The notes under the pieces are model-generated. The model had not been told where the DNA came from, did not search any database, and saw nothing but the letters and a program-made list of their open reading frames with translations. Shown in pieces: positions 4,174 to 26,527 of a stretch of DNA of 27,462 nt. This stretch comes from a virus. The stretch lies in UHGV virus genome UHGV-1840938. The stretch is one strand, 5' to 3'. The number at the start of each line of letters is the position of its first letter. Positions within the stretch are counted from its first letter, which is position 1. The translations under genes were made by a program, and so were the position numbers.

Positions 4174-4445
4174 AGTCTTCTCCATATGTGTTTTAGTCTA
4201 CGCTCACCAGTTAGTAGCTGGTGATCGGGTGTCAACTAGAGCCACATATGAAGCTCCGGGCATATTCCCCTTGCGGGTGTTGTATTACGCCTCTCCACCC
4301 GACCTTTGTACGGATGTAACTATGCCAGATTGCAGGCATAAAAAAGCCGCAAGGCTATCGGGTGCGGTGACCGCATATGTGTTCTAGTGCGGTCAGTATG
4401 CGATAAGCGCTGCGGCATTGTCAAATCATGGGTATGAAAGATGGG

Positions 4446-22751: not shown

Positions 22752-22926
22752 AGCTGCGGGTGCTTGAGGCTGTCTGCCTCGGGCATGCAGCCGTAAGGCA
22801 GACAGAGAAAAGCCCCAGTTAACATTACGCGTCTTGCAGGACGCTTAACGTTAATCTGAGGCCAAATCTATGACTTACAAACTTAGGTTAGCCTCTTACG
22901 TGCCGAAAGGCAAGGAGAAGTAGGCT

Positions 22927-23082
22927 ATGAAGCAGCAAAAGGCGATGTTAATCGCCCTGATCGTCATCTGTATTACCGTCGTAGTGATAGCACTGGTAAC
23001 GAGGAAAGACTTCTGCGAGGTACGAATCCGAACCGGCCAGACGGAGGTCGCTGTCTTCGTAGACTACGAATCTGAGAAGTAA
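22927..23082 (+). CDS. Hok/Gef-family type I toxin (51 aa; absent from the ORF track)
   Basis: Translation MKQQKAMLIALIVICITVVVIALVTRKDFCEVRIRTGQTEVAVFVDYESEK has the transmembrane helix and the LTRK..CE.R...G..EVA.F..YES motif of Hok family; preceded by a 17-codon upstream ORF ending just before the ATG. Confidence 0.7.
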   Translation: MKQQKAMLIALIVICITVVVIALVTRKDFCEVRIRTGQTEVAVFVDYESEK

Positions 23083-23268
23083 GAGACCAGGCAGGGGAGT
23101 AATCTCCCGCCACCTCTGATGTGTCTGGCATCCTCAACGCACCCGTACTTTATTTGTCATATGCTCCGCAAAATGCAGGTTGTCGTTGCAACCAATGCGG
23201 TAATTTTTTGTGTGCGAGTGCTCAAAAAACGTTGATTTTCATAAAAGGATGATTTTATGCTGCCAGAC

Positions 23269-23317
23269 CAGCGACCAGCGACCAGCGACCAGCGACCAGC
23301 GACCAGCGACCAGCGAC
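23269..23317. repeat. Heptanucleotide tandem repeat (CAGCGAC)x7 between an ATG at 23257 and the large restriction-modification ORF
   Basis: Seven perfect copies counted directly; unit length 7 is not a multiple of 3. Confidence 0.95.
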
Positions 23318-23411
23318 CAGCAGTAAATCAAGAAAGTCTGTAAAATCTGTTGAGCCGGAAATTACCGAACTGGCGAACTCATGGCTTAAATCTTACAGGC
23401 TTGATTACAAG

Positions 23412-25373
23412 TTGCAGAATGCATCACTTAACGGAGAGATCGATAACGCACTGGACGCTTATTTTTCGAAAAATGGCGGCGCAGGCGGTAATCGTCCCGA
23501 CGTAAAACTCCTTGTTAAGGACAAATACGGCAAGCAGTATCCCGTTCTCATCGAGTATAAAGGCTACAAGGACAGGCTTATCAGACTTGGCAGCAACGGT
23601 ATTATTGAGAACAAAGATGCCAGAAAAGAATGGAATTTTAAAAATATTAATGGATACGCGGTGAATGGCGCAGTCCATTATGCCAACGCACTTCTTCAGT
23701 TCACCAATTACCCTGATATTATTGCTATTGGTATGACCGGCTGGCGCGATGATGGTACAGGCGAACTGCATCATGAAATCGGCGTGTGGTACGTATCAAA
23801 GAATAATTTAGGAGCCGGACAGAAGGTTGGTGAATTCACCGACTTATCGTTCCTTGCTGACAAAAATGTTGATGGATTTCTCAACAAGATAAAGCTGCTT
23901 AATCTTCCTCCCGAAGAACTGGAAAAAATCAAGGCCAGCAAAGAGGAAGAGATAGACACGCGACTTTCCCGTCTGAATAACGATATTTACCAGAATGAAA
24001 AGGGGCTTGGTGAAAGCGATCGTGTTTACCTTGTTGTGGCTACCGTTATTGCAACGTTGGGGATTCCGGGAAAGTTAGCACCGCTGGATAAAAAAGAACT
24101 GACCTCTTCAACGGAGGAGGACTTGCGTGATGGTGATATTATTTTCAGGAAAATAAGGAATTTTTTAAGGCTGAAAGCTGTTCCTGAAACAAAAAGAGAA
24201 ATGATTTTGCGCTCGTTGCAAAATACGCTGTGGACTGAAAACATTAACAAACCAGTCAACGGTGAAAGCCAGTTAAAGCGCGTGTTTGTTAAAGTTGTTG
24301 ATGATCTTGGGGAGTATTACAAAATTGGACTGACCACCGATTTTACGGGCAAACTGTTTAATGAGATGTATCGCTGGCTTGGATTTACGCAGGACAAGCT
24401 CAATGACGTCGTTCTGACACCACCTTATGTTGCCACATTGCTGGCACGACTCGCCAGAGTAAACAAAGATTCCTATGTGTGGGATTTTGCTACAGGTTCT
24501 GCGGGATTGCTTGTGGCTGCAATGAATGAAATGCTCATTGACGCCAGAGAAAATATTCACTCACCGAACGAACTACAACTTAAGGAAGCGCAAATCAAGG
24601 CTGAACAGCTTCTTGGCCTTGAGGTGTTATCCAGTATTTATATGCTGGCCATCCTGAATATGATTTTGATGGGGGATGGTAGCTCGAATATCCTCAATAA
24701 AGACTCGCTGGCCGATTTTGACGGCAAGTATGGATTTGGGAAAACAGGAGAAAAATTCCCTGCGGACGCATTTATTCTCAATCCTCCGTATTCAGCTAAA
24801 GGTAACGGCATGATTTTCGTGCAGAAGGCGCTGTCGATGATGGATAAAGGCTATGCTGCAGTGATTATCCAGAGTTCAGCTGGCACAGGAAAGGCTACGG
24901 AGTACAACAAAAAAATACTCAAGGAAAATACCTTGCTGGCAAGCATCAAAATGCCTGCGGATCTGTTTATTGGTAAATCAAGCGTTCAGACGTACATTTA
25001 CGTTTTTCAGGTAAAAATTCCGCATAACGCGAAACAGGCTGTTAAGTTTATCGACTTTTCCAATGACGGCTACGCTCGCTCTAATCGCAAAAAGGCAAGA
25101 AACAATCTTGTTGATGCCGATCGTGCAAAAGAGCGTTATCAGGAGGTTGTGGATCTGGTTCACTTCGGGAAAGGTTGCCTTAATATCTTTACGGAGGATG
25201 AATATTTTGAGGGAACAATCGATCCTGATAGTGGTGAGGACTGGAATCAGACCAGGCCAGTAGATGCTAGGCCAACGCTGGAGGATTTCAAAAAGACGGT
25301 AGGTGATTACCTTGCATGGGAGGTCTCGCAATTACTGAAAAAACAAGGTGAAAACAATTTTGCGGGAAAGTAA
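23412..25373 (+). CDS. Restriction-modification subunit: N-terminal PD-ExK-like region plus gamma-class N6-adenine methyltransferase (BcgI-A-like Type IIB/IIG candidate). The open frame extends upstream to 23253 through the repeat tract.
   Basis: Methyltransferase motif I VLTPPYVATLL...VWDFATGSAGLL and motif IV FILNPPYSAKG; N-terminal RPDVKLLVKDKYGKQYPVLIEYK fits a PD...ExK nuclease motif; the only start at the head of the ORF is a TTG with weak RBS, and the first in-frame ATG is far downstream. Confidence 0.85.
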   Translation: MQNASLNGEIDNALDAYFSKNGGAGGNRPDVKLLVKDKYGKQYPVLIEYKGYKDRLIRLGSNGIIENKDARKEWNFKNINGYAVNGAVHYANALLQFTNYPDIIAIGMTGWRDDGTGELHHEIGVWYVSKNNLGAGQKVGEFTDLSFLADKNVDGFLNKIKLLNLPPEELEKIKASKEEEIDTRLSRLNNDIYQNEKGLGESDRVYLVVATVIATLGIPGKLAPLDKKELTSSTEEDLRDGDIIFRKIRNFLRLKAVPETKREMILRSLQNTLWTENINKPVNGESQLKRVFVKVVDDLGEYYKIGLTTDFTGKLFNEMYRWLGFTQDKLNDVVLTPPYVATLLARLARVNKDSYVWDFATGSAGLLVAAMNEMLIDARENIHSPNELQLKEAQIKAEQLLGLEVLSSIYMLAILNMILMGDGSSNILNKDSLADFDGKYGFGKTGEKFPADAFILNPPYSAKGNGMIFVQKALSMMDKGYAAVIIQSSAGTGKATEYNKKILKENTLLASIKMPADLFIGKSSVQTYIYVFQVKIPHNAKQAVKFIDFSNDGYARSNRKKARNNLVDADRAKERYQEVVDLVHFGKGCLNIFTEDEYFEGTIDPDSGEDWNQTRPVDARPTLEDFKKTVGDYLAWEVSQLLKKQGENNFAGK

Positions 25374-25432
25374 ATTCCCCGCTCAGCGATAAATTAAGAA
25401 GCGTTGAGTGGGGAGAGTTCAGGATTGGCGAT

Positions 25433-26527
25433 TTGTTCTATGTGAGCACAGGCTCGCTTATCTCCTCAGGAAGATTAAAACCAGGCAAAATCAAACGTGT
25501 TTCAGCAAAGAGCGATCAAAACGGTATCATCGGAGAGTTTGATACCGAGTTTATGGATGATGCAAGACATTATGAAAATTTTATAAGCGTTAATTTTTTT
25601 GGAGATGCTTTTTATCATCCTTATTGTGCCAGCGTAGAAATGAAGGTGCATGTTCTTACATTAAAATCAAGTAAGTCCGACTTTAATGCAAAGCGCGGAC
25701 TGTATGTTGCCAGTATGATTAATAAAGCTTTAAAGGGGCGTTTTAATTATGGTCAACAGTTATCGAGTTCCAAACTCAGAGATGGAGAATATTTCATCTC
25801 ATTACCAGTGAAAAATAATGAAATTGACTGGTTTTTTATGGATAATTATATAGAAGAGCTGGAAGCGGCCCATATAGAAGAGCTGGAAGCATACCTGATA
25901 GCTGCTGGGCTGAGTGATTACCAACTAACGGAAAAAGATTATCTTATCCTGGAACATTTTAAAAATATTGAATTTTCAGGCTTTCCTGTTACTGAGTTAT
26001 TCTCAGTGTGCAATACAGGAAACATATTGTCTAGAGACATCATAGAAAATAGTGGGGATGTTCCTTATCTTTGTGCTAGCCGTGATAATAACTCTGTTAG
26101 TTCTTATATCGCCTATGATGACTCACTCTTGGAAAAAGGGAACTGTATTTTTATTGGTGGTAAGACATTCGTTGTAACTTATCAGGAGCGAGACTTTTTT
26201 TCAAACGACAGTCATAATTTGCGACTCTATGTTAACAATGAGGATGGAAGGACAAAGTTTGCTTATTTGGGCATTATTTCATGTATTTATAGGTCTATTT
26301 CACATAAATATTCATGGGGGGATAGTGTTAGTAATAGAAAAATTAAGAACGATGTTATTTGGTTGCCAGTGAAAAATAAGTCACCTGACTTTTGTTATAT
26401 AAATGACCTTATTTCAGTTGTTCATAAGCTTGTCATTAAAGATGTTGTCCAGTACGCAGAACGCAAAATGAACGCATACAGGCAAGCTATAACAAGTCGC
26501 GGTTATGATGATTCTGGTGTCAGTTAA
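25433..26527 (+). CDS. Specificity (S) subunit with two target-recognition domains (HsdS/BcgI-B-like)
   Basis: Two repeated TRD-leading motifs (RIGDLFYVSTGSLISSG... and PVTELFSVCNTGNILSR...), central IEELEA repeats; TTG start with AGGA RBS; very AT-rich. Confidence 0.8.
   Translation: MFYVSTGSLISSGRLKPGKIKRVSAKSDQNGIIGEFDTEFMDDARHYENFISVNFFGDAFYHPYCASVEMKVHVLTLKSSKSDFNAKRGLYVASMINKALKGRFNYGQQLSSSKLRDGEYFISLPVKNNEIDWFFMDNYIEELEAAHIEELEAYLIAAGLSDYQLTEKDYLILEHFKNIEFSGFPVTELFSVCNTGNILSRDIIENSGDVPYLCASRDNNSVSSYIAYDDSLLEKGNCIFIGGKTFVVTYQERDFFSNDSHNLRLYVNNEDGRTKFAYLGIISCIYRSISHKYSWGDSVSNRKIKNDVIWLPVKNKSPDFCYINDLISVVHKLVIKDVVQYAERKMNAYRQAITSRGYDDSGVS
25850..25897. repeat. 24-bp tandem duplication in the central spacer region of the S subunit (encodes IEELEAAH / IEELEAYL)
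   Basis: ATAGAAGAGCTGGAAGC appears twice at a 24-bp period (25850 and 25874). Confidence 0.9.

Follow-up and report, generated by a model that had tools for sequence, protein, structure and literature searches.

The viral genome UHGV-1840938 (27,462 nucleotides, here called the window) carries a two-gene restriction-modification module, in which one gene encodes a nuclease fused to a methyltransferase (RM) and the next a specificity module (S) with two target-recognition domains (TRDs). Two tandem 24-bp units at 25850–25897, encoding IEELEAAH and IEELEAYL, lie in frame inside the α-helix between the TRDs, and natural alleles of the S gene carry one, two, three or four such units; some of these alleles are alike in all but the number of units. 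Unit number probably changes the recognition specificity of the enzyme, each added unit being expected to lengthen the spacer of its bipartite site. At the RM/S junction of the same module a candidate cassette for programmed −1 ribosomal frameshifting was found.

The 24-bp tandem repeat

The two units stand head-to-tail and match at 19/24 nt overall, the initial 17 nt being identical. Tandem Repeats Finder, run on the window, delimited the repeat as 25850–25901 (period 24, 2.2 copies, score 69). The longest exact lag match in the S open reading frame (ORF) was 19 nt, as against a maximum of 13 nt and a mean of 8.2 nt in 500 codon shuffles, and a lag match of at least 17 nt was seen in 0/500 of the shuffled sequences. 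A first-pass annotation of this DNA had listed the two units at these positions; the coordinates were confirmed, and the codon shuffles placed the duplication beyond chance. Both units are in frame within the ORF assigned as Methylase_S by Pfam.

The same 48 bp were found in the three sequence-checked complete Escherichia coli genomes with the TRD pair of the window (L001, L009 and L010), indicating that the repeat is not an assembly artefact. By BLAST, the repeat region was at least 99% identical in 20 complete genomes and matched the phage record PhiR12_3 at 99.9%, the unit number in that record not being inspected. The window ends in Nextera adapter read-through (27416–27462, CTGTCTCTTATACACATCTCCGAGCCCACGAGAC plus index-like bases), which marks its last 47 bases as non-genomic and the source of the contig as a short-read library. 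Also, a nearby 7-bp array looks clearly collapsed, with 8 copies vs 23–120 in complete genomes. An origin of the 24-bp repeat as an assembly or sequencing artefact of such a contig is nevertheless barely conceivable, since 48 bp is far below read length and the complete genomes have the identical sequence.

Position of the repeat in the S protein

The S module was modelled with AlphaFold2 (AF2) as 383 aa translated from 25376, using an 82-sequence alignment. The model (mean predicted local distance difference test score, pLDDT, of 91.4) showed the order TRD1, helix 152–176, TRD2 and helix 339–374. The repeat formed residues 159–174, within the 25-residue central helix. Its placement between two TRDs, as the first-pass annotation had it, was thus borne out, and it does not fall outside the inter-domain spacer of the structural model.

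Pfam PF01420 (Methylase_S) matched two stretches of the S ORF (E=2.6e-24). With the S model as query, Foldseek returned full-length S subunits at probability 1.00 (1YDX, 1YF2, EcoKI HsdS, EcoR124I HsdS 7BST_A and BsaXI S 8W0P_C). The protein has the fold of a Type I specificity protein, with two TRDs, a central helix and a C-terminal helix. Sequence searches of the PDB with RM and with S gave no match at E<0.01. A four-unit allele (P0001), also modelled by AF2, had a single continuous central helix of 41 residues, and its C-terminal 36-residue helix was unchanged.

Unit number among natural alleles

Seven of the 10 fetched E. coli loci have two units and three have three (L004, L007 and L008). 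L003 (two units) and L008 (three units) have both TRD variants in common and few other substitutions. Strains with matching TRDs and unlike unit numbers are G6/7 (CP060061, two units) and SCU-104 (CP053284, probably three), and JNEC-KY171 (AP045167, two) and strain 48 (CP166879, three). Among alleles with the TRD pair of the window, two units occur in P0003, three in P0004 (seen on 107 contigs) and P0006 (69 contigs), and four in P0001 and P0002; the window and P0003, P0004 and P0001 differ by 0–1 substitutions outside the repeat. Natural alleles differing only in repeat number are represented by the series P0003/P0004/P0001 and by the pair L003 and L008. The extra units of L007, L008, P0004 and P0001 are exact copies of unit 1. 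One-unit alleles (P0015 and P0017) and other four-unit alleles (P0014 and P0038) have other TRDs.

Unit number was tallied in 71 loci with a recognisable centre, comprising the species-level loci, the 10 E. coli loci and the window. Two units were present in 57, three in 11 and one in 3. The family consensus at the centre reads ...FIAELEAER-IAELEAYL.... The extra unit of three-unit alleles is 23–24/24 nt identical to its neighbour (L014, L030, L040, L044, L074, L082 and L084), and such alleles arose independently in at least 8 lineages of many phyla; between the units of two-unit alleles, DNA identity goes down to 6–15/24 in many lineages. Judged from these sequences, two units are the ancient default of the family, and expansions and contractions are recent, recurrent and independent. 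Two units being the ancestral state across the family, the repeat is not a duplication that arose anew in this gene. The proposal that copy number is a point of variability held up: the comparison of homologous S genes gave a range of 1–4 units, and homologues do not all have exactly two copies.

The repeat as a junction for TRD shuffling

In BLAST alignments with alleles that have another TRD2, identity breaks off at window positions 25890–25897 (query 2741–2748), where unit 2 ends. Around an unchanged repeat, variants A (window), B (L003, L007 and L008) and C (L004) of TRD1 are paired with variants A and B of TRD2. Thus, the repeat is also a junction for TRD shuffling. These observations would also fit a repeat that is mainly a patch of DNA homology for shuffling TRD1/TRD2 cassettes (domain movement), with copy-number change as a by-product, and the same was proposed by Furuta 2011 for Helicobacter pylori genes (PMC3077401). 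We consider this improbable as the main role, because alleles with identical TRDs and different unit numbers (P0003/P0004/P0001) need no TRD exchange and the extra units are exact local duplications. A function in shuffling is, moreover, compatible with an effect of unit number on specificity, not exclusive of it.

A BcgI-like Type IIB/IIG module

The RM ORF (653 aa) has an N6_Mtase domain and a weak VRR_NUC match in Pfam, and the S ORF lies downstream. Translated from 23340, RM matched the PADLOC profile REase_MTase_IIG PDLC03616 end to end (E=3.2e-232) and also a 637-position IIG profile of PADLOC (E=1e-44). S matched Specificity_II PDLC03591/03593 (Type II specificity subunit, one profile being 341-position) at E about 1e-24. 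The RM ORF contains the motifs NPPY and DFATGSAG of a gamma N6-adenine methyltransferase, and its nuclease motif RPD..EYK is conserved in the Microcystis, H. pylori and metagenomic homologues. The catalytic Glu53 of BcgI is in the same kind of N-terminal PD..EXK motif (PMC3592470).

The window, the 10 E. coli loci and 3 distant loci all lack an HsdR-like gene beside the RM–S pair. RM scored 36 bits with TIGR00497 (hsdM) vs a cut-off of 243; NCBIfam gave only sub-threshold hsdM and MADS2 matches for RM and none for S. The hallmarks of a classical Type I system, a separate HsdR and an HsdM without nuclease, were not found, and those of a BcgI-like Type IIB/IIG system, a PD..ExK nuclease and a gamma methyltransferase in one chain with an adjacent two-TRD S, were present. 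Because no HsdR was found and RM is a fusion with a Type IIG profile match, the system is not classical Type I. By sequence it is a BcgI-like Type IIB/IIG module of two genes, one for the nuclease-methyltransferase fusion and one for S, and the earlier label of a Type I S subunit had to be given up.

A methylome paper on O111 Shiga toxin-producing E. coli was discarded as a source on the present system, the novel enzyme there being an unrelated Type IIG (CRARCAG).

Comparison with known systems

Furuta 2011 reported 0–4 tandem copies of the 24-bp CAGTGTCGGCTCGCCGAACTTGAG between the TRDs in the S gene of an H. pylori "Type IIG RM system with separate S", and predicted variation of the recognition sequence from the copy number (PMC3077401). 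The H. pylori homologue L012 contains exactly this unit, QCRLAELE, at the homologous place. Krebes 2014 classed the H. pylori BcgI-like pairs HP1471/HP1472 and JHP1364/JHP1365 as Type IIB, and found that Hpy99XXII with an engineered start codon methylates TCA N6 TRG (PMC3936762). We infer from the sequences that the unnamed locus of Furuta, like L012, is HP1471/JHP1364 (Hpy99XXII).

The module of the window resembles the H. pylori HP1471/HP1472 type in its S (48% identical over 98% of the length, P0053), in the two-gene RM+S layout, in having an 8-codon unit of variable copy number at the same place (0–4 there, 1–4 here), and in an S frame that is −1 after the RM stop and has no ordinary start codon. 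It differs in its TRDs and in host and setting: Q and hok precede it in the late region of a lambdoid prophage of E. coli. The unit is IEELEAAH here vs LAELEQCR there, the on/off switch is a heptanucleotide array at the 5′ end of RM vs poly-G in S, and the heptamer at the RM/S junction (see below) is G_GGA_AAG vs C_CCA_AAG.

Central repeats of known effect are found in Type I systems. In EcoR124I/II, two or three copies of TAEL correspond to N6 or N7 (PMC3874165), and in H. pylori Type I group 2, with repeats of 4 aa, a change from 3 to 4 copies corresponds to 7 to 8 bp (PMC3983042). The window shares with EcoR124I/II an in-frame tandem repeat in the inter-TRD helix and the overall S fold (7BST_A), but the unit is 12 bp (4 residues) there and 24 bp (8 residues) here. 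EcoR124I/II is, moreover, a classical Type I system with HsdR, in which HsdM and HsdS are translated separately, and no sequence similarity to it was detectable.

With BcgI and BsaXI ((RM)2S; the stoichiometry of BcgI is 2RM:1S, PMC3874165) the window has in common a PD..ExK nuclease and gamma N6-adenine methyltransferase chain and a small two-TRD S, whose fold matches that of BsaXI S; unlike them, it has no sequence-level match to any solved chain. In the literature searched, no central repeat polymorphism or frameshift cassette was found for BcgI or BsaXI, and the BsaXI cryo-electron microscopy paper has nothing on helix length, spacers or frameshifts. The repeat is accordingly a rediscovery of a described family trait, in a new host and context.

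Proposed role of the repeat

In a BcgI-like Type IIB enzyme, the 8-codon units would build the central helix of the S module, which together with the C-terminal helix would keep the spacing and relative rotation of the two TRDs constant. Whole units would be gained or lost in frame by slipped-strand mispairing or unequal recombination, because the units are near-identical at the DNA level. In an ideal α-helix, each unit would lengthen the helix by 8 residues, about 12 Å and about 2.2 turns, with about 80 degrees of net rotation. TRD2 would then move relative to TRD1, and the gap of the bipartite site would change. If the rule of the 4-residue systems (+1 bp for 4 residues) is additive, each unit would add about 2 bp to the non-specific gap; +3 bp per unit would also be permitted by simple coiled-coil geometry. 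The excised fragment would lengthen by the same amount as the gap, because in Type IIB enzymes the distance from each half-site to the cut outside it is constant.

Several points weigh against an effect of unit number on specificity. In Furuta 2014, the attempt to match motifs with the Type IIG S alleles of H. pylori was unsuccessful (PMC3983042). Two units are far the commonest number (57/71 loci), and other numbers could therefore be tolerated or mildly defective. In the four-unit model the AF2 predicted template-modelling score (pTM) fell from 0.71 to 0.60 and the local pLDDT was 75–88, and the length changed in just one of the two coiled-coil helices. Several prophage copies are decayed or off, with IS1 between RM and S in L002, split S annotations in L005, L006, L009 and L010, and an RM start out of frame. 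Finally, the poly-G tract of Krebes (13–14 G) was absent from L012 and L077 in a search for runs of at least 9 G or C, which leaves the exact 24-bp unit and the layout of the genes as the basis for linking L012 to HP1471/JHP1364.

Some of these points would suit a different explanation, in which two units are a fixed structural repeat of the coiled-coil helix and the 1-, 3- and 4-unit alleles are neutral or loss-of-function products of slippage. Two units are indeed the family consensus and can be old, as the low identity between units in many lineages shows; the H. pylori alleles without assigned motifs and the many decaying or silent prophage copies point the same way. We regard this explanation as unlikely, although less so than a mere homology patch. 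The three-unit alleles of at least 8 independent lineages have intact ORFs, the three-unit alleles P0004 and P0006 are common in E. coli, and wherever a central S repeat has been tested, copy number altered the gap and did not kill the enzyme. An effect of unit number on spacer length thus remains the favoured reading.

A candidate −1 frameshift cassette at the RM/S junction

The arrangement of the RM/S junction suggests that S is probably not translated alone, and that a programmed −1 frameshift at the end of RM would yield both free RM and an RM–S fusion. The 3′ end of RM reads ...TTT GCG GGA AAG TAA, and S is in the −1 frame relative to RM. The S frame, open from 25352, has no ATG, GTG or TTG before 25433, a position inside the conserved N-terminal strand KLRSVEWGEFRIGDLF; annotated S starts are GTG 25442, TTG 25433 and even ATT 25424. 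A slippery heptamer, G_GGA_AAG, directly precedes the RM stop. In the other E. coli alleles the heptamer is A_AAA_AAG and lies one codon short of the stop; in H. pylori it is C_CCA_AAG. All three heptamers are named as highly shift-prone in E. coli (Atkins review, PMC5009743).

Among 73 species-level loci, which span many phyla, 67 have G_GGA_AAR immediately before the RM stop and 1 has C_CCA_AAG there; in the remaining 5, G_GGA_AAR is one to eight codons upstream of the stop. The codon before the heptamer always ends in G whatever its amino acid (TTG, CTG, GAG, TCG, CCG, ATG or GTG). In 50/74 loci, no start codon occurs in the S frame from its upstream stop up to the conserved N-terminus. From the heptamer on, the −1 frame is under protein-level selection, one position being Leu in 70/72 sequences with six synonymous codons in use.

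Besides the heptamer and a −1 ORF without its own start, stimulators were found at canonical spacing. Family-wide, pairing of the anti-Shine-Dalgarno sequence with the 16 nt ending 4 nt before the heptamer had a mean of −6.75 vs a background of −1.75 kcal/mol (p=1e-24). A hairpin starts 6–7 nt after the heptamer in the family and 5 nt after it in the window. Covariation in the hairpin was assessed on an ungapped 72-sequence alignment, with the partner strand slid along and 500 shuffles as controls. Paired cells made up 95%, vs 35–49% with the slid partner, and compensatory double changes were seen in 34 cells vs 4.4±2.7 in the shuffles (0/500). One pair occurs as UA, UG, CG and GC. RNAalifold independently recovered the same stem, and divergent E. 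coli alleles have a hairpin of different sequence at the same place. The hairpin had no Rfam family match.

Other routes to S were considered. Independent translation from TTG 25433, GTG 25442 or ATT 25424 was rejected as the principal route: S would lose its N-terminal helix and first strand (KLRSVEWGEFRIGDLF), both of them conserved and under selection at the protein level. Termination-reinitiation at a codon overlapping the stop was rejected too, an ATG or GTG overlapping the TGA stop being present in only 5/74 loci and ATA or GTA in the others. Transcriptional slippage is unlikely, GGGAAAG having only three A's. In 19/74 loci, S might be translated separately from an in-frame start further upstream that overlaps the tail of RM.

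If frameshifting operates, a fraction of ribosomes would shift at the heptamer and continue into S, giving the predicted junction peptide ...NNFAGKVNSPLSDK... (FAGK|VNSPLSDK). An (RM)(RM–S) assembly could give the 2 RM : 2 TRD stoichiometry of BcgI, and the central 8-residue repeat would set the half-site spacing inside an enzyme built by frameshifting. In EcoKI, an engineered M–S fusion works only with additional free M (PMC3510504). Hpy99XXII in its native form shows activity in H. pylori J99 (PMC4490391), although Krebes 2014 ascribed the reported inactivity of H. pylori systems to a missing S start codon (PMC3936762).

The predicted product, RM fused to a two-TRD S, has the architecture of the single-chain Type IIB enzymes AloI, CjeI, PpiI and TstI (RM~S1~S2). 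Those are hard-wired in-frame fusions of about 1250 aa, whereas here the fusion would come only from shifting ribosomes, beside free RM. The cassette resembles the −1 frameshift sites of dnaX and of phage lambda G/GT in its X_XXY_YYZ heptamer, that of lambda G/GT being G_GGA_AAG, and it has, as in dnaX, a Shine-Dalgarno-like upstream stimulator and a downstream hairpin. It differs from both in that the zero-frame stop directly abuts the heptamer, and its products would be an enzyme and an enzyme–specificity fusion instead of polymerase or tail-chaperone isoforms. No paper linking ribosomal frameshifting to Type IIB or BcgI-like systems was found in the literature search, and the cassette is apparently undescribed.

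In-frame fusions of RM to a single-TRD half-S were observed at the same junction in P0144, P0151 (L094 45–2225), P0152 and P0155. These natural fusions have no GGGAAAR heptamer in the peptide context and resemble HaeIV-type RM~TRD enzymes.

The RM start and other variable arrays

ORF callers and PGAP chose TTG 23412 as the RM start, but the conserved RM N-terminus, KSVEPEITELANSWLKSYRLDYKL, is encoded upstream of it at 23340–23411. The true start is ATG 23257, which has the Shine-Dalgarno sequence AAAGGA and is followed at once by a (GACCAGC)n array at 23266–23321. The array is therefore within the coding region, where it serves as an on/off switch for phase variation. At the 8 copies of the window the ATG frame stops early (OFF); ON requires n mod 3 = 1. 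The 23–120 copies in complete genomes are perfect (L001 1617–2197; L008 1617–2456), so the 8 copies of the window are probably a collapse in short-read assembly. Across this array, PGAP calls a spurious "YXWGXW repeat-containing protein" on the opposite strand.

In sister S alleles with a different TRD2, the 24-bp units are directly followed by an 8-bp array, (GGACTCGC)n, which is absent from the allele of the window. At n = 3, 6 or 9 the S gene remains intact and is extended by GLADSRTR units; at n = 8 or 16 a change of frame truncates S after TRD1. This array is a second phase-variable switch, which could toggle between a full and a half specificity module.

Genomic setting

Within the late region of a lambdoid prophage, the RM–S module follows ninG, ninH, Q and hok/sok; it was found in 30/5426 complete E. 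coli genomes and in phage PhiR12_3. In some genomes it lies directly upstream of a tRNA-Ile/Arg/Arg cluster and stx2AB of Shiga-toxin prophages (L005 6880–7858; tRNA genes in L009 and L010), and thus in the Q-to-lysis "moron" slot. The module may be transcribed from the prophage late promoter.

The C-terminal half of RM is 77–80% identical between E. coli prophages and distant phyla (for example P0184 Bacteroides, P0206 Nitratifractor and P0221 Pasteurella), and across phyla it is much more conserved than S. The pattern points to very strong constraint or to horizontal transfer that was both recent and wide.

Rfam families scoring above their gathering threshold matched at 22758–22932, 22927–23082, 26714–26930, 13529–13716, 4215–4304 and 99–170. 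The families in the window include the sok antitoxin RNA by a hok/gef ORF just upstream of RM, the STnc100 small RNA just downstream of S, C4 antisense RNA, isrK, sRNA-Xcc1 and a tRNA at the start of the window. Coordinates of the features of the module are collected in Table 1.

Table 1. Features of the RM–S module (window positions unless a locus is named)
Feature	Position	Strand	Remarks
RM gene	23257–25373	+	PD..ExK nuclease and gamma N6-adenine methyltransferase; start ATG 23257, out of frame with the body as assembled
Shine-Dalgarno-like AAGGTGA	25345–25351	+	13 nt upstream of the heptamer
Slippery heptamer G_GGA_AAG	25364–25370	+	directly before the RM stop TAA 25371–25373
S-module coding frame	25370–26527	+	−1 relative to RM; open from 25352; first ATG/GTG/TTG at 25433, inside the conserved N-terminal strand
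13-bp hairpin	25376–25414	+	25376–25388 pairs with 25402–25414; starts 5 nt after the heptamer; ΔG −23.3 kcal/mol, z −5.61
TRD1 variant A	25403–25828	+	unrelated TRD1 variants in its place in L003/L008 and in L004
Central α-helix	25829–25903	+	residues 152–176 of the translation from 25376 (AF2 model); holds both units
Repeat unit 1	25850–25873	+	ATAGAAGAGCTGGAAGCGGCCCAT = IEELEAAH; the unit duplicated in 3- and 4-unit alleles
Repeat unit 2 (terminal unit)	25874–25897	+	ATAGAAGAGCTGGAAGCATACCTG = IEELEAYL; sole unit in 1-unit alleles
Linker and TRD2 variant A	25904–26389	+	TRD2 variant A widely conserved in the family
C-terminal 36-residue helix	26390–26497	+	predicted coiled-coil partner of the central helix; unchanged in 3-/4-unit alleles
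8-bp array of sister alleles	L002 6594–6721; L005 5368–5431; L006 5865–5992; L007 5792–5839

Implications

The interpretation offered by the first-pass annotation was partly upheld: the inter-TRD location of the repeat and the variability of its copy number stand, and the Type I label gives way to Type IIB. The repeat itself adds an example from E. coli and Stx-type prophages to a known route by which restriction-methylation specificity diversifies. The natural alleles with the same TRDs and two, three or four units offer the first chance to calibrate the 8-residue step on a Type IIB site and its cut positions. The locus stacks at least three devices of variability, namely the heptanucleotide on/off array, TRD shuffling and variation of helix length, to which sister alleles add the 8-bp array that truncates S.

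The frameshift cassette would, if confirmed, be the most consequential point. It would explain why H. pylori members look "inactive for lack of a start codon", and would offer a route to the single-chain AloI/CjeI architecture. It would also be an instance of recoding that fixes the ratio of subunits in a restriction enzyme. The cassette, which is conserved in bacteria of many phyla, is systematically mis-annotated, with S starting at internal GTG, TTG or ATT codons and RM at TTG.

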